A stretch of DNA of 64,000 nucleotides from a virus (lineage: Duplodnaviria; Heunggongvirae; Uroviricota; Caudoviricetes): positions 45,600-109,599 of the IMG/VR virus record IMGVR_UViG_3300020594_000001. One strand, written 5' to 3'. The position numbers and the translations under genes were made by a program. Of this stretch, positions 913 to 63,728 are shown piece after piece; within the stretch, counting starts at the first letter, position 1; every line of letters begins with the position of its first letter. The notes under the pieces are model-generated. The model saw nothing but the letters and a program-made list of their open reading frames with translations. It searched no databases and was not told the origin of the DNA.

Positions 913-947
913 TAATGCAAACGTTTTTTTCAATGCAAACGTTTTTT
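913..947. repeat. tandem direct repeat 2 x AATGCAAACGTTTTTTT upstream of the 849 gene start
   Basis: Two adjacent 17-18 nt copies are visible in the sequence. Each contains the self-complementary core AAACGTTT. Confidence 0.6.
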
Positions 948-1145
948 TAGTGTTTTAACGAAAAAACTTCAAATCTAGGGGTTTTCACTGATACCGGGGC
1001 GCTTTGCTTGCCCGGGCATGCTTGACCCTACGGGGCGCGGTCAGGACGCGCTTTCCCGCCCCGCTGAGCGGTCTAGGATGGGCTCGCCCCGGTGCGGCCC
1101 GGTCGGGCGTGGCGGGGTGCTGCGCCTAAACCGATGACCAGGGTT

Positions 1146-1207
1146 GTCGCCGAACATGCTGACCAGCGAAATGGCCGAATACGTGACCGTTTGGCGAGCC
1201 GAACACA
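1146..1207. repeat. cluster A of GCCGAACA(C/T)(G/A) repeats, 3 copies
   Basis: GCCGAACATG (1149), GCCGAATACG (1174) and GCCGAACACA (1198) match a second cluster at 3279..3377. Confidence 0.55.
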
Positions 1208-1587
1208 AAATGCATTTGGGATCAGGTCGGCGCTAGGCTCATCAACTCGTGGGATAAAAAATAGGCCCGTCAGCGCTTCAGAACTTCAAAGCGCTTCGGG
1301 GCCATAAGGAGGCTCACATCATGCCAATGTGATCGGACAGACATCTTCATTCGGGGGGCAGTTTCTCTTCATGCCCCAGGAAGTTGGAGTCTTCAGCACT
1401 TACCGCTTGCGCCCTTCGCGTTTTGGGTCAGTAGCGCGGGGCAAGCAGCGAATCGAAGAAACCGAAGTATGTGCGCCCGGGGCAGGATGCGCCCTTTCCC
1501 GCCCGTGGCTGCGTTTAAATGGGTCGGTCCATACCCTCATGACCCTGGAGGGTCTAAAACGCGTGGCGGGCGGGGAAAATGCAGGGC

Positions 1588-1707
1588 CTAGCGAAGTTGG
1601 CGAGCGATGCGTTTGTTGTAGGCACGCTCGCGCAGCAACCGCTGCGATCGGATCATCGTCACCTCAGCGTGCTCTTGCATAATTTCGAATCGTTCAATGG
1701 TCGTCAT
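1588..1707 (-). CDS. small hypothetical protein, 39 aa (MTTIERFEIMQEHAEV...)
   Basis: ATG at 1705..1707 is preceded by a GGAAG Shine-Dalgarno. It falls below the 60-aa ORF-track cutoff. Confidence 0.35.
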   Translation of the reverse strand: MTTIERFEIMQEHAEVTMIRSQRLLRERAYNKRIARQLR

Positions 1708-2233
1708 GGTGGGCTTCCTTTCACTTTGGAGTGAGTCATAAAAATTGAAGCTTGAGTGTCAGTTGTTACGGTAGGCACGCCAAACCCCTGTCAACCCCCG
1801 GGGTGGTGCTAGGTCGGTTTGCCTGAACCTGATCGACCGCAACCTCTTCGCTTTGCTGACCCTTGAAAGACCCTAAGACAAAAGACCCCTCGGGCGCGCG
1901 TGCGCGTTATATATATAAAGGAACTTATTTTTAAGAATTAGAAAGTTGTATATATAGAGGGGAAGCCAAAATCGTGCTAAGTCTGAATTTAGAACGCCTA
2001 CAACTTAGAAAATAATGCTGCGGCACAACGACTTACGTTAATTTTTACTAAGAAAGGAGGCGCGGCAAAGGAGCGCCGCTCTTAACCCTTTAAAAGCACT
2101 AAGGATGAAGCCTGCGGGAGTGAAACTGAGTGCGGCTTTTTCTTTTAAAGCACTAAGAGTTGCTTTTCTGGTCCTAAAGGCGGTCCTAAGCTCGCGGGAA
2201 AAGAAAAGCCCCTTTTCAGAGGCTTAGTTCTTT

Positions 2234-2906: not shown

Positions 2907-2966
2907 GATGTTTACCTTGTGTGCTGTCGTTATGAGGTGTCATCATGAGCGCCCAAAAGAGGCACT

Positions 2967-3097
2967 TTTCCCACTTTCGTTTCTTTACCCCCGGTTTTTC
3001 GGATACTTTTCTAAAAAATTTCCCACTTGAAGCGCCTAAATCCGATAGATATTGGGCGATCTTTCCCACTTTGCTAGGCGCGCAAAACCCACTTTTG
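2967..3097. repeat. four direct iteron-like repeats TTTCCCACTT(T/G)
   Basis: Copies at 2967, 3018, 3062 and 3086 lie inside a 1.1-kb non-coding region. Confidence 0.6.
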
Positions 3098-3278
3098 GGG
3101 CTAAAACGGGGTTTTCGGGGTGTAGGCGGGTCAAACCGAGGGGGGTTCGATTGCCTAAAGAGGGAGATAGGCCCGAGCACCAGGACAGGACGCCCAGCCC
3201 GTTAGGCAGTCTCTGGCGGTTGATACGCCTACACCTCTATACACGCGCAAAGGGGGCCTAATCGCTTACCAGGGATCT

Positions 3279-3377
3279 GGCCGAACACGTAGGCTGGGGG
3301 TGAGCCGAACATGAAAAAGGCTTATGGGCATTGGGGAAGGCGAGCCTTTCTATATACGGAAAGCTGGCCGAACACGA
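3279..3377. repeat. cluster B of GCCGAACA(C/T)G repeats, 3 copies
   Basis: GGCCGAACACG (3279), GAGCCGAACATG (3302) and GGCCGAACACG (3367). Confidence 0.55.
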
Positions 3378-4000
3378 AAGGAACTGGGCGCTAGGACGGC
3401 TTAGGCACGTTGACGTTTAAAGGCTTAGGAAGCGGAAAAATCTCTTATACGTCCGGTTATTGTTGTCATACGTCTGGTCCTATATCCGGTTATGTGGTTG
3501 CTTGTATATTCGGTTTATATGGTGTGTTTAAGCATCCTCTGTTTGTGTTGTTGATGAACCTCTCTATGGATTCCTTTCTCTATTCATTAACCGTCTCTTC
3601 TTTCTATCTGTTGTAGCTGTCGATATTGTTGTTGCTGGTCTTATCCGCACACTTTCTCTTTTCGTCATACGTTCTTTTTGGATTCGAGCTCGCCTGGTCA
3701 GTCTCTGTCTTCTCTTTCCCTCACGTCGAAATAGATTCGTTTTGCTTTGGTTGCTTTGCTTGAATCGCGCTTGCTTGCGCTTTTGGCGATCGACCTATGC
3801 CAGGGTATCGGTTTTGCTGAAAATCGCTTGTAGCGCGTTTAATCGGTTCTCTCGATACAATCGCGGGCGAAATTGCGGGGTTGCCTATGCTTGAAAAACC
3901 CCTTTAAAATCAATAGCTTACAATACGAGATTAACCCTTGCAAAAAAGACCCTTAAAATCAATGGGTTACGAGGGGTTTTCCTATAGGCTTTGCGGGCAT

Positions 4001-4030
4001 AAAAAAGACCCCACCTGTGAGGGGGTGGGG
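4001..4030 (-). terminator. rho-independent terminator for minus-strand transcription
   Basis: On the minus strand the hairpin CCCCACCC..GGGTGGGG is followed by TCTTTTTTAT. It closes the tmRNA-containing transcription unit. Confidence 0.6.
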
Positions 4031-4227
4031 CCGTGAAGAGTCTGTTTCCAGACTTAGGTAAACACCGATGCAAAGCGGTGTCTGGGTGAGGATAGCACAG
4101 CAGCTTTCGCTATAGGCTGATGGTTGCGCAAGGGCCTAGGGTTCCCTTCCGTTGTTCGGTCCCGCATAGTAGCCCGGGCGGGTTTGCAGCCCTTTGTCCC
4201 GGCGTTGCTTTCTGCTAAGAGGCAACC

Positions 4228-4314
4228 ATCATGTCTGCCAACGAGAAGGAATCGAACCTTCGCCTTCGACCTCGCGAGTCGTTGCTCTACCAAACGCGCA
4301 TCGTTGGCAGACAT
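4228..4314 (-). other. tRNA-like element, a degenerate cloverleaf with anticodon GCG (Arg-like), enclosed in a 16-bp inverted repeat
   Basis: On the minus strand: acceptor GCCAACG/CGTTGGC, D-arm GCGC-GTTTGGTA-GAGC, anticodon loop TCGCGAG, T-arm GAAGG-TTCGATT-CCTTC. Defects are C at position 33, one extra nt before the 3' acceptor strand, and no encoded CCA. The stem is extended by ATCATGTCT/AGACATGAT. Confidence 0.4.
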
Positions 4315-4595
4315 GATGATCCTGGTCTTTCTCTTCGCCAGGGCAGAAGCTGATGGTGTCGCACGCTCTACATCAGGGAGGGCCTACGCCATCACCCGGT
4401 ATCGGTCCAACCGCCAGCGGTCGGTGCGAAACTCCGTCAGGTTTTCACCTTCACCATCATGAAAAAGAGCGGTCCTCACCCTTGCACGTCTGGCGCACGT
4501 CCGGCCTTTCGTAATACTCGCCAGCAGGGTTGATACGGTTTTGAACGGGCCGCGCTCTTTCATGATGGCCCCGGGCATTCCCGGGGAACCTTTAC

Positions 4596-4925
4596 TTAGC
4601 AGTATTGTTCCTCTAATTCTTCAGCGAGTTTGGTTGCGCCTTCCAGCAGCGGTTCAAGCGAAACGTGATAATCAGCGATGACGTCGAAGCCGTCGTTGCC
4701 GTAAACGAGATAGACGGTAGCGCCGGGGTCTTTGTCATCTTGGTGGACGATCAAGGTGTCCTCGCAGGTGAGTCCGATGGCCGCCATAATGTCAGCGACA
4801 TTGCGTGAACGCTTGAGCGCGTATGCCTCGCCATCAAAGACCGATATGCTACGACCCGCAGCGATGACGTCTTGGGCGAGTTTTCGAACGATCTTGCGCT
4901 CGATTTGTTCGGTAGTCGGTGACAT
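4596..4925 (-). CDS. hypothetical protein, 109 aa
   Basis: ATG at 4923..4925; trimmed from ORF 4596..5111. Confidence 0.45.
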   Translation of the reverse strand: MSPTTEQIERKIVRKLAQDVIAAGRSISVFDGEAYALKRSRNVADIMAAIGLTCEDTLIVHQDDKDPGATVYLVYGNDGFDVIADYHVSLEPLLEGATKLAEELEEQYC

Positions 4926-4959: not shown

Positions 4960-5220
4960 TCATGCGCCCGCAGATGAGGATGCGACATCGCGCAACAGCG
5001 CCTTGAATTGCTCTTCAGACAGAGGCTCTCCCGACAGCTCGCCCGGCTCAATGGTTGAATCCATGTAAGACCATCCGTTCCACCAGTCAGCGACATACCA
5101 TTTCGTTCCATCGCCGGGAACCGACCTGTCTAGCTTCACGAGCTCGCCATGCACGTTGCGGAAGATCATGCCCTCTTCGAGCTCGTATCGGCGCTCATAC
5201 CAGTCAATTTCCTTGCTCAT
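4960..5220 (-). CDS. hypothetical protein, 86 aa
   Basis: A strong AGGGGGAA Shine-Dalgarno lies immediately 3' of the tmRNA coding piece. Confidence 0.5.
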   Translation of the reverse strand: MSKEIDWYERRYELEEGMIFRNVHGELVKLDRSVPGDGTKWYVADWWNGWSYMDSTIEPGELSGEPLSEEQFKALLRDVASSSAGA

Positions 5221-5221
5221 G

Positions 5222-5662
5222 TGCTTCCCCCTACGTTGCGCTTCAATGATGGCCCCCGGCTTCTGTTGCCACCTGCCGGGGAAGGCCGTTACCGCTTAAG
5301 CAGCGGCACGGATGTAGTCGTCGTTGGCGTCTACAAGTTTTGCTTGGTTTATACGGCTCCGCTTGCCGAGTAGTTCGATTCGCTTCAGTATGTCTGTCGA
5401 AACCATGTCAGCCCCATCAGGAATTCCCTCGCCACTTTCGTCGGAGCAACCCGACTACTTGCTTCACTCACCAGTCCGTCGTTATGCGCACTTACGATAG
5501 GACTCGTGGGCCGTCTTGCCCCTCTATGGGCAGTCACGGAGGGAATTCCTGGTGGAGCTGGCGGGAGTCGAACCCGCGTCCAGACACCATTCACTGCACG
5601 TCTCGCGCCCCCCTCCGGCTAGAGGAAGTCGCACACTACCATCATCGAAGCGGGCCGGGCTT
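5222..5662 (-). ncRNA. ssrA: circularly permuted two-piece tmRNA gene: acceptor piece about 5550..5662, intervening hairpin 5416..5547, coding piece about 5222..5415
   Basis: The minus strand reads ...GGACGCGGGTTCGACTCCCGCCAGCTCCACCA (T-arm, acceptor 3' strand, CCA), ending at 5550. The tRNA-like 5' end GGGGCTGACATGGTTTCGACAG starts at 5415, after the CCA. A tag frame GCC AAC GAC GAC TAC ATC CGT GCC GCT GCT TAA (ANDDYIRAAA) lies at 5296..5328. A 14-bp complement links the coding-piece 3' end to the acceptor-piece 5' end. Confidence 0.7.
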
Positions 5663-6436: not shown

Positions 6437-6508
6437 CGTATTTACCTGTTTTGATGTAGTTATGTGCATAGTGCCCGCGACAGTCAGGCGCGTTTTGTGC
6501 TAAAACAA

Positions 6509-6528
6509 TACTGTATATTTAAACAGTA
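6509..6528 (+). promoter_or_regulatory. LexA (SOS) box, beta/gamma-proteobacterial type
   Basis: TACTGTATATTTAAACAGTA fits CTGT-N8-ACAG with palindromic flanks. It lies 11 bp upstream of the ATG at 6537. Confidence 0.6.
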
Positions 6529-6536
6529 TCAAGGCC

Positions 6537-6839
6537 ATGCCCAGATGCACTCTACAAACCTCCCACTCGTTCGGCCAACCCCGCATAGCGTGGTCTGCCC
6601 CGGTCGAGGTGCCTATCAAGCTGTCGACGCGAGAGCACGATAGGCTCAAGCGCGTCGTGTCATACCTGCATGTTCCCTACCAGGGCGACGGCAACCTAGA
6701 CGCCAGCCAGAAAATCGCTGCGCTGTATGAGCCTTACGTGCTTGCGTTCAACTCTGACAAAAGCATCGTCTTTGGTGGGTTCGAGGAAATCACCGGCTCA
6801 CGCTTCTACCAAAGCTGGCTTGTGAAATGGCTCGACTAG
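6537..6839 (+). CDS. hypothetical protein, 100 aa, plus-strand, probably SOS-regulated
   Basis: One of very few plus-strand genes. A LexA box overlaps its promoter and RBS region. Confidence 0.5.
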   Translation: MPRCTLQTSHSFGQPRIAWSAPVEVPIKLSTREHDRLKRVVSYLHVPYQGDGNLDASQKIAALYEPYVLAFNSDKSIVFGGFEEITGSRFYQSWLVKWLD

Positions 6840-6986
6840 CGTAGCGATGATATCCAGGTTCGCCTCGATATCCCGCAGGCAGTCAGCCGCTTGGGCGATT
6901 GCGCCAGCGGGCGACTTTGCCCGAAAGTTTCCGACCTCTGTGAGTCGCCCACCGTTCACACGGCACTGCACGATGTAGCTGTTCAT
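6798..6986 (-). CDS. hypothetical protein, 62 aa
   Basis: ATG at 6984..6986 with an AGGGAG Shine-Dalgarno. Confidence 0.4.
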   Translation of the reverse strand: MNSYIVQCRVNGGRLTEVGNFRAKSPAGAIAQAADCLRDIEANLDIIATLVEPFHKPALVEA

Positions 6987-56145: not shown

Positions 56146-56772
56146 TTATGATTCGTTGTGGTAATACAGCTTTGTAGTATTGCTATCGATGCGAGGATTG
56201 AGCGTCATCAAGCCCGCAGCGTCTTCGACGCCTATCCCAAGCTCTTTGAAAACGCGCCAGATCAATGACGCCTGGACCGACGCTGAGCTCGATGCCCAGC
56301 CTAGGGCAGATTGGAGCGCTGCCTTCGCTTGTGCCTTGGAAACAGGAACACGGTTGGACAGCAGCAGATACATCGTGCTGGCGGTGCGTTGGCTGTCATT
56401 TGGGAATGGGTTCTCGCCATTGGCAAGCGCCTGGGCAATGAAAGTCTCTTTCCTGAACATTGCCCGCATCATCTTGCCCACCGCTGCAGGAACGCTGTCG
56501 ATCAGCGCTTTCTGTGTGGGCGTCGGTGCCCAGCGCGCGCGGGTCGCCCGCTCGACTTTCACCTCAAGAGGTCTGGGCTGCGCAACGCGTTCGACCGGGT
56601 CATTAACCGCGACCATTGTGCTGAAGGTCAGAATGAGCTCTGGATCGCCAATCCTCGATAGGACGGTGCGAGACACCGACACACACGCATTTGCGCTGGC
56701 GCATGTGTTGCATTTGGGCGACCGCACGCTAAACACGCTGGGAATGCCAAAGCACCCCGGTTGCCTAAGCAT
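56146..56772 (-). CDS. hypothetical protein with N-terminal Cys cluster; candidate anti-sigma partner
   Basis: Cys cluster CFG...KCNTCASANAC. It overlaps the sigma factor stop by 8 nt, suggesting translational coupling. Confidence 0.3.
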   Translation of the reverse strand: MLRQPGCFGIPSVFSVRSPKCNTCASANACVSVSRTVLSRIGDPELILTFSTMVAVNDPVERVAQPRPLEVKVERATRARWAPTPTQKALIDSVPAAVGKMMRAMFRKETFIAQALANGENPFPNDSQRTASTMYLLLSNRVPVSKAQAKAALQSALGWASSSASVQASLIWRVFKELGIGVEDAAGLMTLNPRIDSNTTKLYYHNES

Positions 56773-57448
56773 GAATCTTCACCCCCAACACGGTGTCGAA
56801 CTCCTGCGCGATGCCGCGCATTTGCTCGCGGGAATAGCCTAGGTAACGCCCGATAAGACGAACCGACAGCTTTTCGCTCGGATTGCGACGCTTAGCGCCA
56901 CCCGCAATGTGCTTGTGAATGGCAGCGAGATATTCTTCGTGCGCGTCCATAACCGCCTGGGTCGGGGCCATGATTTCACGAATGATGCGCCGGGCCTCTG
57001 CCGATAGGCACCTAATTCGCTCTGAAATTTCGACGCTACGCACTGCCAACTGCTCGACGCTCAGCGTGGTGTCGGCCAGGTATTGCTCGGGGGAAAACTC
57101 GTCTTCGTCGTCCTCCCCAGACATTTCGCTAAAAAGCATCACCCCATGCAGGGCTCGCTCTTCGATGCGCTTGTTGACATAGCGGTTCACGTTGTTAAGC
57201 ACCGCCCGCCCCATGTAAGCGCTGAATGTGATGCCCAGGCCAGGCTTATAGGTGCGCAGTGCCTCAGCGTAAGAAAGACACGCCTCTTGGAACAAGTCTT
57301 CGTATTGAATGTTGGTCTTTGTCGCAAGAACCCGCGTGTGGATGGTCCTGGCGAGCTTGTGGATTAAGCCTTTCTGGGCTTCGAAGCTGGTGTCAAAACC
57401 ACGCCCCACCCCGGGGCGTGATCCTGATTGTTGAAGTTGAGTGCTCAT
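56765..57448 (-). CDS. sigma-70 family RNA polymerase sigma factor (regions 2 and 4)
   Basis: Region 2-like EDLFQEACLSYAEALRTYKPGLGITFSAYMGRAVLNNV and a C-terminal HTH LSVRLIGRYLGYSREQMRGIAQ. Confidence 0.5.
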   Translation of the reverse strand: MSTQLQQSGSRPGVGRGFDTSFEAQKGLIHKLARTIHTRVLATKTNIQYEDLFQEACLSYAEALRTYKPGLGITFSAYMGRAVLNNVNRYVNKRIEERALHGVMLFSEMSGEDDEDEFSPEQYLADTTLSVEQLAVRSVEISERIRCLSAEARRIIREIMAPTQAVMDAHEEYLAAIHKHIAGGAKRRNPSEKLSVRLIGRYLGYSREQMRGIAQEFDTVLGVKIHA

Positions 57449-62118: not shown

Positions 62119-62412
62119 ATGAGCCCTACCGAAATTGTTCTGAAGCAGTTCCCCAATCGTGTTTCTTTGTCTGTGGCAGAAGCGGGCGCGGCCCTGGGCT
62201 ACGCTCGCCAAACCACCTACAACCTGAAAGCGAAAGGGAAATTTCCCGTCAGGATCAGCTTCGCGGGCAAGACTCCGATCGTCCATCTGCACGACCTCAT
62301 CAGCTTCCTAGAGGGCTTTCCCGCTTCGAACGATTCCAACTTCACCCCAGCACCCAAGAAGAAAGGGCGTCCCTCGAAAGCGGACGCCCTTCGCAAAGCA
62401 GGGGTGATCTAA
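62119..62412 (+). CDS. AlpA/Xis-family excisionase or DNA-binding protein
   Basis: LSVAEAGAALGYARQTTYNLKAKGKFP is a MerR-like winged HTH of the AlpA type. It overlaps the int stop. Confidence 0.6.
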   Translation: MSPTEIVLKQFPNRVSLSVAEAGAALGYARQTTYNLKAKGKFPVRISFAGKTPIVHLHDLISFLEGFPASNDSNFTPAPKKKGRPSKADALRKAGVI

Positions 62413-63506
62413 GCGACTTTCGTTGCTTCGCTGCGGTTGGCGGCGACTCGCTCCGCCATCTTCTGAGCCAAGAATTTGGCGTTCAAATGAGTGTATCGCC
62501 TCAGCTGACGGTAGTCACGGTGCCCAGTAACTGCCGCTGCCTCCACTAAGCTCATACCCAAGTCTTCGAAAAGTCTGCTCGTCGCTTCATGGCGCGCGTC
62601 ATGCAGACGCAAATCTTTGAATAGTTGTGGGTCGGGGGCGATGCCCTGCTCCAGACACTCTTTCTCATAGATTTCTCGGGCACGCTTTCGCGCACGACCA
62701 AATGCCTGGGTAAGCGAGTCAGCTGCCACACCAAAAACCCTTCCTTCCTTGCGATCCCCGATAACTTCGCGTAGCACTTCTGCAACACCGGGCAGGATCG
62801 GAATCGTTCGATCATCGCCATTCTTGGTGTCGGGCAAAAACACTGTCGCGTCTCGTAGGTTAACGTGCGGGATTTCCATTTCAGCAGCTTCACCTCGGCG
62901 CATCGCGCTATTAACCGCCACATAGAGAAACGCTTTGAGCGCTGGTGAATTGCTTGCCTCGACGATCTTTGTATATTCATAGTCCGCCTCGTTCATTTCA
63001 CAAACGAAACGCCTGGTTCGCCCCTTTGGGGCGGCGGGGCGTTTAAGACCTTCTATGGGATTCTTGAGGCCCTTGAAGTCGTTGCATTCCGATATGGCGA
63101 AGTTATAGAACGACGAAATCATCCCTAACTCGCGAATGACTGTCCCTTTGGACACCGTCAGCAGTCGAGTGTTTCGGTATTCGCGAAAATCGGACAATCC
63201 ACAATCGAGCAACTCTTTGCGCGCCAAGGGCAATCTCTTCAGCCGCAAGATGAAGTTGAGCTCCTGCTTTGCACCCTTTTTGGACGGCACGGCCTTCTCC
63301 TGGCAATAGTCCAAAAGGTCGTAGAGCCGCTTTCCCTTAAGGTGCCGCATGTCGACAAAGGTCTTTTCCTTAATCGCCTTCTCAGTCTGTTCCGCCCATT
63401 CTTCTGCTTCGCGGCGGGTGGGGAAGGTTTCTGATAACGACGGGGTGCCCTTAACCCGCACCTTTGCCCTGAACTGGTATGGGCCACGCTCTTCAATGAC
63501 AGCCAT
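62409..63506 (-). CDS. int: tyrosine-type phage integrase
   Basis: C-terminal catalytic motifs LHDARHEA and TGHRDYRQLRRYTHL (R..H..R..Y); adjacent to a tRNA. Confidence 0.85.
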   Translation of the reverse strand: MAVIEERGPYQFRAKVRVKGTPSLSETFPTRREAEEWAEQTEKAIKEKTFVDMRHLKGKRLYDLLDYCQEKAVPSKKGAKQELNFILRLKRLPLARKELLDCGLSDFREYRNTRLLTVSKGTVIRELGMISSFYNFAISECNDFKGLKNPIEGLKRPAAPKGRTRRFVCEMNEADYEYTKIVEASNSPALKAFLYVAVNSAMRRGEAAEMEIPHVNLRDATVFLPDTKNGDDRTIPILPGVAEVLREVIGDRKEGRVFGVAADSLTQAFGRARKRAREIYEKECLEQGIAPDPQLFKDLRLHDARHEATSRLFEDLGMSLVEAAAVTGHRDYRQLRRYTHLNAKFLAQKMAERVAANRSEATKVA

Positions 63507-63652: not shown

Positions 63653-63728
63653 TGGTGGGTGCTACAGGGGTCGAACCTGTGACCTACGCCTTGTAAGGGC
63701 GCCGCTCTACCAACTGAGCTAAGCACCC
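63653..63728 (-). tRNA. tRNA-Val (anticodon TAC)
   Basis: Manual cloverleaf on the minus strand, GGGTGCTTAGCTCAGTTGGTAGAGCGGCGCCCTTACAAGGCGTAGGTCACAGGTTCGACCCCTGTAGCACCCACCA, with an encoded CCA. Confidence 0.85.

Follow-up and report, generated by a model that had tools for sequence, protein, structure and literature searches.

A phased array of short direct repeats in a gene-free tract of a large temperate phage recurs beside terminase genes of unrelated phages

Introduction

What is the role of the gene-free, repeat-bearing tract that begins at position 2907 of the window, i.e., of the 64,000 nucleotides of phage DNA analyzed here? A preliminary description of this locus, made from its letters, proposed that it is a candidate replication origin or partition site. 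The question reaches beyond a single phage. Packaging signals and replication origins of large environmental phages can almost never be identified from sequence and are thought to be phage-specific, and a phased motif shared between phages would be a testable handle on genome recognition, on the pairing of satellites with helpers, and on the start of transduction. For the phage studied here, the array region described below offers one place at which to aim binding, terminus-mapping, and replication experiments. If the tract were an ordinary promoter/operator block, the finding would be routine.

Genomic context of the tract

The window covers most of a large temperate siphophage-like element, with nearly all its genes on the minus strand. 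Independent contigs end 175-600 nt past the integrase gene (Table 1). The element had been credited with its own DnaE and recombination genes, and we did find DnaE, RecA, a gp32-like protein, a 5'-3' exonuclease, and SbcCD-like proteins, as well as ribonucleotide reductase, ThyX, and RtcB. The DnaE is 43% identical to that of phages resembling Rhizobium phage RHEph10 and Pseudomonas phage nickie.

The region of interest lies near the downstream end of a long leftward run of genes, and the 5.7 kb that surround it are unusually gene-poor. In line with the preliminary description, no convincing ORF is present in 2907..4000: all candidates have at most 110 aa, are of low complexity or odd composition, and lack a Pfam match. 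The gene-free tract is longer than first stated and reaches 4595 (2907..4595). The next gene probably starts at 4925, and its 109-aa product matches phrog_4158. The terminator noticed earlier at the right of the interval is genuine but stands on the minus strand, being read from 4032 to 4007. It closes the upstream minus-strand unit, which comprises the tmRNA, the small gene, and tRNA-like elements, and this places the tract between two minus-strand transcription units.

We found no relatives of the locus by blastn against 50,697 phage records, nor by searching IMG/VR for loci related to both flanking proteins. The 111-aa protein matched only itself among 5.8 billion proteins, and a pattern scan of metagenomes returned mostly (TTTCCCAC)n microsatellites and no relative of the locus. 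Contigs retrieved from Logan match the window at 100% identity. Two relatives retrieved through the tmRNA tag (L123 and L124) both have the tmRNA, and L123 also has RtcB; neither carries the non-coding tract or the motif, and they were set aside.

Table 1. Coordinates of the features discussed in the text (positions in the window)
Feature	Position	Strand	Remarks
Paralogous GCCGAAYAYR module	1097..1220		Sites at 1149, 1174, 1198; second ORF-poor region
Phased TTTCCCACTT array	2967..3095		Exact copies at 2967-2976, 3019-3028, 3062-3071; degenerate copy at 3086-3095
GC-rich segment	3119..3235		16-nt inverted repeat 3119-3134 / 3220-3235
Three GCCGAACAYG repeats	3280..3376		Exact at 3280, 3304, 3367
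T-rich tract	3410..3760	T-rich on plus, purine-rich in gene sense	Unstructured, low duplex stability
Two 28-nt direct repeats	3894-3921, 3943-3970	plus	82% identical, 49 bp apart
IHF consensus WATCAANNNNTTR (predicted sites)	3908-3920, 3957-3969	plus	Perfect matches, A/T run upstream
Intrinsic terminator	4007..4032	minus	GGCCCCACCCCCTCACAGGTGGGGTC then TTTTTTAT
tRNA-like element	4237-4307	minus
Two-piece tmRNA	5205-5642	minus
Protein with sigma-70 region 2 (ECF-like sigma factor)	56765-57448
Integrase	62409-63506		Right end of window
tRNA-Val	63653-63728		Right end of window, beside integrase

A phased array at the left end of the tract

Four direct repeats had been described at the left end of the tract. 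Three of them are exact copies of the 10-mer TTTCCCACTT, although the second starts at 3019 and not at 3018, while the fourth is a degenerate copy (AAACCCACTT), within which the 7-mer CCCACTT is exact at 3088. All sites have the same orientation, with start-to-start spacings of 52, 43, and 24 bp. The exact 10-mer occurs nowhere else in the 64 kb, and its three copies fall within 105 bp. Read on the minus strand, the sites are AAGTGGGAAA and precede the ATG at 2906 by 60-190 nt. The AA/TT dinucleotides of 2950-3130 have a periodicity of 10.5 bp that was equalled by 0 of 2000 shuffles, which points to intrinsic curvature of the array DNA.

We considered other identities for the sites. A dif-like core is absent from the region, and a check by eye showed that sigma-54, sigma-28, and ECF promoter readings do not fit the sites.

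Distribution of the array in other phages and satellite-like elements

We scanned IMG/VR for two copies of TTTCCCACTT separated by 25-50 nt, which returned 81 loci. The same scan with the reversed motif returned 85, and we therefore dropped the number of hits as an argument: only spacing, the non-tandem nature of the pairs, and gene context discriminate between the motif and its control. Spacings of the control pairs are all in frame (3- and 9-nt multiples), the pattern that collagen-like coding repeats would give. In contrast, 20 of the 29 dereplicated non-tandem TTTCCCACTT pairs in IMG/VR are spaced by 41-43 bp, and their spacers are unrelated. Across 24 unrelated units, the A/T content of the spacers has a period of ~11 nt. 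A further scan, of a genome collection, was uninformative, as it produced mostly tandem repeats of 8 nt and of 21-42 nt that contain the 10-mer by chance. A plain string search of the literature for the 10-mer returned only papers on the eukaryotic interferon-beta enhancer, and we provisionally regard phased TTTCCCACTT arrays as an undescribed class.

Arrays recur in ~25 unrelated families of phages and satellites, and ~15 of them adjoin terminase or portal genes. In one large family the array separates an Sf6-type small terminase gene from the large terminase gene, and the position between terS and terL is found again in independent families (L146, L165, L186, L190). Elsewhere it lies upstream of a Terminase_2-type terS (L138), at a DUF5681 TerS-like gene (L194, L160), at the start of TerL (L128) or near it (L173, L156), and between TerL and portal (L226, L324). 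The small terminases abutted by arrays belong to the Pfam families Sf6_terminase, Terminase_2, and DUF5681, and the large ones to Terminase_6N, Terminase_3, and TerL_ATPase. Most arrays outside the window sit in intergenic gaps at terminase genes, often of 70-170 bp, that contain no AT-rich tract. The proteins that flank the array of the window have no match in any array-bearing locus elsewhere.

A few arrays have other neighbors. One follows DnaB (L158), one lies between an HTH_36 gene and RusA and is followed by an AT-rich palindrome (L125), and one comes after a DUF927 primase (L253). The last of these, together with L285 and L301, stands beside a P4-type integrase in betaproteobacterial integrative elements, with a dif-like core alongside. 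Satellites that are packaged by a helper phage are expected to copy the packaging signal of that helper. Finally, arrays occur in both orientations relative to genes (L130 versus L146, L138, and L156), which argues that the array acts as a DNA site rather than as an RNA element.

Other sequence features of the tract

The direct repeats previously noticed near 3900 and 3950 are real and are 28-mers. Each contains a match to the IHF consensus (AATCAATAGCTTA and AATCAATGGGTTA), and these are two of only three such matches in the 64 kb. Both combine the consensus with an upstream A/T run, as expected of an IHF-binding site, and are predicted to be such sites. Sigma-70-like hexamers overlap the 28-mers on the plus strand (TTGCCT-18-TAAAAT and TTAACC-17-TAAAAT) and on the minus strand (TTGCAA-17-TAAGCT at 3942-3914). 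In the other loci, the IHF consensus is ~3-fold enriched within 300 nt of arrays, and in two of them (L226 and L253) it falls inside a spacer. The layout and orientation of L194 are those of the window, with a gene, then an array ending in AACCCACTTTT, then AATCAATGGGTTAC, and this arrangement is located upstream of a TerS-like gene and TerL. A comparison of L194 with the window revealed no wider homology.

The three GCCGAACAYG repeats described earlier were all recovered as exact copies. They have a paralogous cluster of GCCGAAYAYR sites (1149..1207), upstream of a gene that begins at 849. When 3197-3330 is locally aligned with 1097-1220, the score is 56, and shuffles give 24.5 +/- 3.7 (maximum 51). 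Hidden coding in this module was considered and rejected, as the substitutions show no third-codon-position bias and a stop codon is present in the B copy. A scan of IMG/VR for pairs of GCCGAAYAYR gave matches that are coding or unrelated tandem repeats. The simplest guess is that the module holds candidate binding sites of a second regulator.

Other claims about small repeats could not be confirmed. Instead of repeated small palindromes, the interval has a single notable inverted repeat, at the ends of the GC-rich segment (3119-3134 / 3220-3235). Its stem is absent from the paralogous copy at 1097-1220, and its folding is marginal (z of -2.0 on the minus strand and -2.4 on the plus strand). 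The short direct repeats TCCGGTTAT and TTCGGTTTAT are at chance level, GGTTAT occurring 17 times in the window.

The pyrimidine-rich tract, on the other hand, is real and wider than claimed (Table 1). Its purine fraction on the plus strand is 0.33, against a mean of 0.469 (sd 0.032) over the window, a difference of ~4.3 sd; its T content is 44%. At 3437-3736 it includes the 300-bp stretch with the lowest duplex stability in the 64 kb. However, A+T is only 59% in these 300 bp, which lie ~340 bp from the array and lack repeats of the 13-mer type, and spots of 60-120 bp that are more AT-rich occur elsewhere, at 1905 and 60954. We detected no helical periodicity in the T-rich tract. Phage nickie has a comparable gap of 1.1 kb (100392-101485), at a comparable distance from DnaE. 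This gap holds a sense tract rich in purines and an intrinsic terminator, with a repeat-rich GC domain ahead of the next gene. We found no comparable gap in RHEph10.

Cumulative GC skew, computed over ~67 kb of a genome of at least 109.6 kb, has its maximum at ~4.1-5.0 kb, just right of the interval. Its polarity is ambiguous: by the bacterial convention it would be that of a terminus, and coding-strand bias could also explain the skew. A scan for DnaA boxes found no cluster: the tract has one near-consensus box, and the total in the window is that expected by chance.

Possible roles of the tract

The features described above support the view that the whole tract is probably cis-acting DNA with repeated candidate protein-binding sites, and that it is neither a gene nor a structured RNA. 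The initial interpretation is thus supported in part: its general idea of repeat-bearing, cis-acting DNA stands, the origin that it names is one of several candidate roles, and the partition site is unsupported.

As to the nature of this control, we tentatively favor a packaging-recognition site in cis, resembling lambda cosB or SPP1 pac, as the most likely role. This preference comes from the other phages: the same array is found at terminase or portal genes in ~15 unrelated families and also in satellite-like elements. The core of the site (2967-3095) combines four TTTCCCACTT sites in the same orientation with curved DNA in which A/T runs recur every 10.5 bp. These sites would be occupied by a multimeric DNA-binding protein, with the DNA wrapped around the complex. 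Bending or opening would be assisted by the two IHF-consensus sites (3908, 3957) and by the T-rich tract (3410-3760), which melts easily. The packaging machinery would recognize the phage chromosome through the array, either by the HTH domains of the small terminase or by a partner protein, on bent DNA, and in this phage the site would have become uncoupled from the terminase genes. Repeated candidate sites on bent DNA, often with IHF, are what one expects of cosB or pac, and they are present here; the expected location at terminase genes is seen for the same motif in ~15 other families but not in the window.

The packaging reading has serious weaknesses. In the window and its extension by contig L001, terminase genes are absent from the 3.3 kb on the left of the array and from the 60 kb on its right, and the genes next to the array have no detectable relatives. 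Three assembled contigs (L001-L003) cross the array unbroken, and there is thus no sign of a physical genome end at this place. The small terminases of array-bearing phages are of different families, which makes it hard to accept that TerS specificity alone accounts for one 10-mer and points to another binder. A shared small terminase was rejected as the common factor, since an HMM built from array-associated Sf6-like TerS proteins, which carry a GRPSxY...ICxxI motif, has no match in the window or in L001. It also counts against packaging that some arrays stand by replication genes (L158, L125, L253) and that annotated relatives of array-bearing phages (MW202545, GB2A, PBR31, ppBeUSDA76-2, MW091528) have no array, their terS and terL abutting. 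In favor of packaging, the annotation of Caulobacter phage GB2A, which is related to the main family, puts its terminal-repeat boundary within the terS-terL area. The ends of short IMG/VR contigs fall within 200 nt of arrays 7 times, against ~2.8 expected, which is weak evidence for genome termini at arrays.

Two further readings, a promoter/operator block and a replication origin, seem to us equally plausible, and each is possible but rather unlikely. In the former, the tract would control transcription of the minus-strand operon (genes starting at 2906, 2470, 1707, and 849), which would need its own promoter downstream of the terminator at 4032-4007. The AAGTGGGAAA sites could be phased activator or repressor sites, or -35-like elements for the ECF-like sigma factor, with the proximal site overlapping the -35 position of a weak -10 (CATGAT, 2946-2941), and the GCCGAACAYG modules upstream of two operons could be the sites of the second regulator. 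The array stops 60 nt short of the ATG and is oriented towards the gene, as it is in most other loci; the minus strand has no consensus sigma-70 promoter, which fits a dependence on an activator or on a dedicated sigma factor, and among the gene products of the window is a protein with sigma-70 region 2. The duplication of the GCCGAAYAYR module upstream of a second gene is also consistent with this reading, and IHF sites are common at regulated promoters. However, arrays elsewhere occupy the terS-terL or the terL-portal gap, where the flanking genes are normally co-transcribed, and some have the opposite orientation (L146, L138, L156). In addition, the motif precedes no other gene in the 64 kb, unlike a sigma-specific promoter, and the three sites do not share a downstream -10-like element.

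In the latter, an initiator would bind the repeats, IHF would bend the DNA, and the T-rich tract would open. Alternatively, replication could be primed by an R-loop, a minus-strand promoter near 3914-3942 giving rise to a stable, purine-rich RNA:DNA hybrid over 3760-3410, as at ColE1 and T4 origins. Several features fit an origin. The 300 bp of lowest stability in the window lie in the T-rich tract, whose asymmetry between purine and pyrimidine strands is extreme in the gene-sense direction. Two IHF consensus sites and two kinds of clustered direct repeats are present, and cumulative GC skew has a turning point nearby. Moreover, the phage encodes replisome and recombination proteins of its own, some arrays elsewhere follow replication genes (DnaB, HTH_36, or DUF927), and nickie has the analogous gap with its purine-rich sense tract. 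The details fit less well. Iteron origins have at least three direct repeats of ~17-22 bp at a spacing of ~2 turns (~22 bp), whereas the core of the array is of 10-11 bp at 52, 43, and 24 bp, and that of GCCGAACAYG of 10 bp at 24 and 63 bp. We found neither a DnaA-box cluster nor, among the ~45 window ORFs scanned, a Pfam or PHROG match to Rep, O, or DnaA-like proteins that could be a cognate initiator in cis. The terminus-like skew polarity, itself confounded by the coding strand, the more AT-rich spots at 1905 and 60954, the lack of such a gap in RHEph10, and the location of most other arrays in short terminase gaps devoid of an AT-rich tract also argue against an origin.

A wider proposal is that TTTCCCACTT arrays, with 2-4 copies ~42 bp apart on curved DNA and sometimes with IHF, are a cis element of many unrelated tailed phages and of integrative satellites, read by one conserved factor for packaging or for a related complex; we consider this improbable. 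Under the same proposal, the window would be an example of the element sitting far from terminase genes, in a multi-part non-coding hub. If it were true, sequence could serve to predict packaging sites in different phage families and to pair satellites with the phages that help them.

A long non-coding RNA on the minus strand, from ~3914 to ~3400, that is structured or acts as a purine-rich sponge of Hfq or CsrA is very unlikely. It would fit the purine-rich, U-poor sense tract, which is extreme for the window, the intrinsic terminator that follows the similar tract of nickie, and a neighborhood rich in RNA genes (tmRNA, tRNA-like element). Yet 2907-4000 has no Rfam match, even with E up to 5, no terminator follows the tract in the window, and the sliding-window MFE z is ~0 on both strands over 3250-4000. 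With z values between -2.8 and +1.5 and no known family, a structured RNA is unsupported. Least credible of all is a partition (centromere) site of a plasmid-like prophage, as first suggested, or decayed, functionless DNA: clustered direct repeats are present and the related phage RHEph10 has ParA- and ParB-like proteins, but no ParA or ParB domain was found in the ~45 window ORFs scanned, the integrase gene of the element stands next to a tRNA gene, and decay is disfavored by the exact repeats, the 10.5-bp phasing, and the recurrence in other phages.

Comparison with known systems

The injection-stop-signal region of phage T5 is a large non-coding block rich in repeats. Like it, the tract is more than 1 kb of gene-free DNA with varied direct and inverted repeats in a large siphophage, the likeness being one of general layout. 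T5 is virulent and has long terminal repeats, whereas the element of the window has an integrase.

Origins that prime from an R-loop (ColE1 RNA II, T4 oriF and oriG) have a promoter-like element followed by a tract whose purine-rich transcript pairs stably, and the tract studied here has the same order of parts. However, the promoter, the transcript, and the hybrid are hypothetical in our case, and we recognized no processing signal of the RNase H type. The likeness to iteron origins with IHF (lambda ori, pSC101, R6K gamma) is in the combination of direct repeats, IHF consensus, and a tract of low stability within one non-coding region. In contrast with these origins, the repeat core has half the usual length and its copies are spaced twice as widely, ~340 bp separate the repeats from the AT-rich tract, neither a cognate initiator gene nor a cluster of DnaA boxes is found nearby, and the repeat occurs together with unrelated replication modules.

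The pac sites of SPP1 and SF6 have direct repeats (boxA/B/C) on intrinsically bent DNA with phased AT runs, which wraps the ring of the small terminase (PMC4737164). In SPP1 the site extends over the terS promoter and the beginning of terS, and even SPP1 and SF6 differ enough that their repeats show poor conservation. The array shares with them the direct repeats, the phased A/T runs, and the predicted intrinsic curvature, and the wrapping on an HTH ring that we propose would be of the same kind. It differs in that a single 10-mer is common to many unrelated phages.

The cosB site of lambda has the order R3-I1-R2-R1, in which sites of the small terminase gpNu1 are combined with an IHF bend. 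The R sites of lambda resemble CGTTTCCnTTCT, which differs from the sequence of our sites, and the latter are direct repeats at ~4 helical turns. We identified no cosN-like nicking site here, the sites of the window are away from terminase genes, and its IHF sites are ~840 bp from the array. Nevertheless, as in cosB, several short T/C-rich candidate protein sites are spaced by tens of bp and occur with the IHF consensus and with predicted bending, and in the comparison loci the arrays stand beside terminase genes, two of them (L226 and L253) with the IHF consensus inside a spacer.

Structured RNAs in and next to the gene-free tract

The gene-free tract contains a tRNA-like element recognised by the Rfam tRNA model, for which ARAGORN makes no call. 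Its acceptor stem is lengthened into a perfect 18-bp hairpin, CATCATGTCTGCCAACGA...TCGTTGGCAGACATGATG (folding z of -5.5), its anticodon loop reads UCGCGAG, without the usual U33, and there is no encoded CCA. A second long hairpin has a folding z of -3.2 when the minus strand is folded singly. It shares its ends, CCATCATGA...TCATGATGG, with the tRNA-like hairpin and so could have arisen as a second copy of the latter that has since decayed.

The phage also carries a two-piece (permuted) tmRNA, with relatives in two IMG/VR contigs, L123 (positions 6507-6878) and L124 (11095-11466). These RNAs are 88-89% identical to that of the window and specify the same tag. The first contig (94 kb) encodes, besides the tmRNA, three tRNAs and an RtcB gene with 73% DNA identity to the window's own. 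At least seven minus-strand genes of the window begin translation in a near-identical context, ACA(A/G)GGTAAACA(T/C)(C/A)ATG.

Features of the window and of the phage nickie locus
Feature	Position	Strand	Details
Genes with the shared start context	113, 847, 2904, 9313, 13188, 15709, 16676	minus	
Direct repeat pair AAACGTTTGCATT	905-945	minus	
Second ORF-poor block	933-2233		holds the paralogous GCCGAAYAYR module (1097-1220)
39-aa gene	1707-1588	minus	inside the second ORF-poor block
tRNA-like element	4227-4318	minus	Rfam tRNA, 36.6 bits
Second long hairpin	4454-4568		arms of 22 nt, 86% complementary, 71 nt apart
Two-piece tmRNA	5205-5642	minus	tag ANDDYIRAAA
Non-coding gap of nickie	L328 3393-4486 (Pseudomonas phage nickie 100392-101485)		1.1 kb

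Arrays in other phages and integrative elements

A second conserved element, approximately CGAGCGAnCGAGAC and partly palindromic, accompanies the array in the L130-type family and at loci L128, L140, L190, L146 and L324. It lies in the last spacer, before the final site, of terminase-associated arrays, in phages whose TerL families differ, and may serve as a cleavage site. The window has no copy of it. In three betaproteobacterial integrative elements, L253 (about 5380-5410), L285 and L301, pairs of TTTCCCACTT flank a dif-like core (..ATAAC-N5-GTTATGTTAAAT). Such pairs have as neighbour either a P4-type integrase or a primase of the DUF927 type, a setting that could be Xer-related or an attachment site. 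Pattern scans of genomes and metagenomes were swamped by the 8-nt microsatellites (TTTCCCAC)n and (TTTCTCAC)n, frequent in genomes of Bacteroidales, Desulfobacterales and others (loci including L209, L211, L221, L229 and L421-L441), which are unrelated to the phage arrays.

At the integrase side of the window, three independent assemblies (L333, L334 and L335) all stop 175-600 nt past the integrase, at or near a tRNA-Val (about 63.7-64.1 kb of the window). Either the element ends here, or variation in the flanking host DNA interrupted the assemblies.

Sequence organisation of the non-coding regions

Inspection of the sequence by eye revealed about seven (G/C)CGAT(T) motifs, one every 16-28 nt or so, at 3739-3867, and the AA/TT periodicity of 3760-4000 is maximal at 12 bp, with a peak that none of 2000 shuffles matched. 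The lowest duplex stability of the entire window at the 60-120 bp scale is found in the second ORF-poor block, at 1905-2025, a TATATATA-rich segment with a GC content of 23-32%. For the gene that starts at 849, the repeats at 905-945 provide a good predicted promoter of sigma-70-like type (TTGCAT-18-TAAAAT).

Within the gap of Pseudomonas phage nickie lie a 570-nt purine-rich tract on the sense strand and an intrinsic terminator (L328 3970-4012). A further domain of 370 nt holds about 10 repeats of the CCGCGG type, along with several long-range inverted repeats. The gene that follows this gap is preceded by two copies of TTGCAAGCGTTTA, a pair resembling the promoter-like one of the window.
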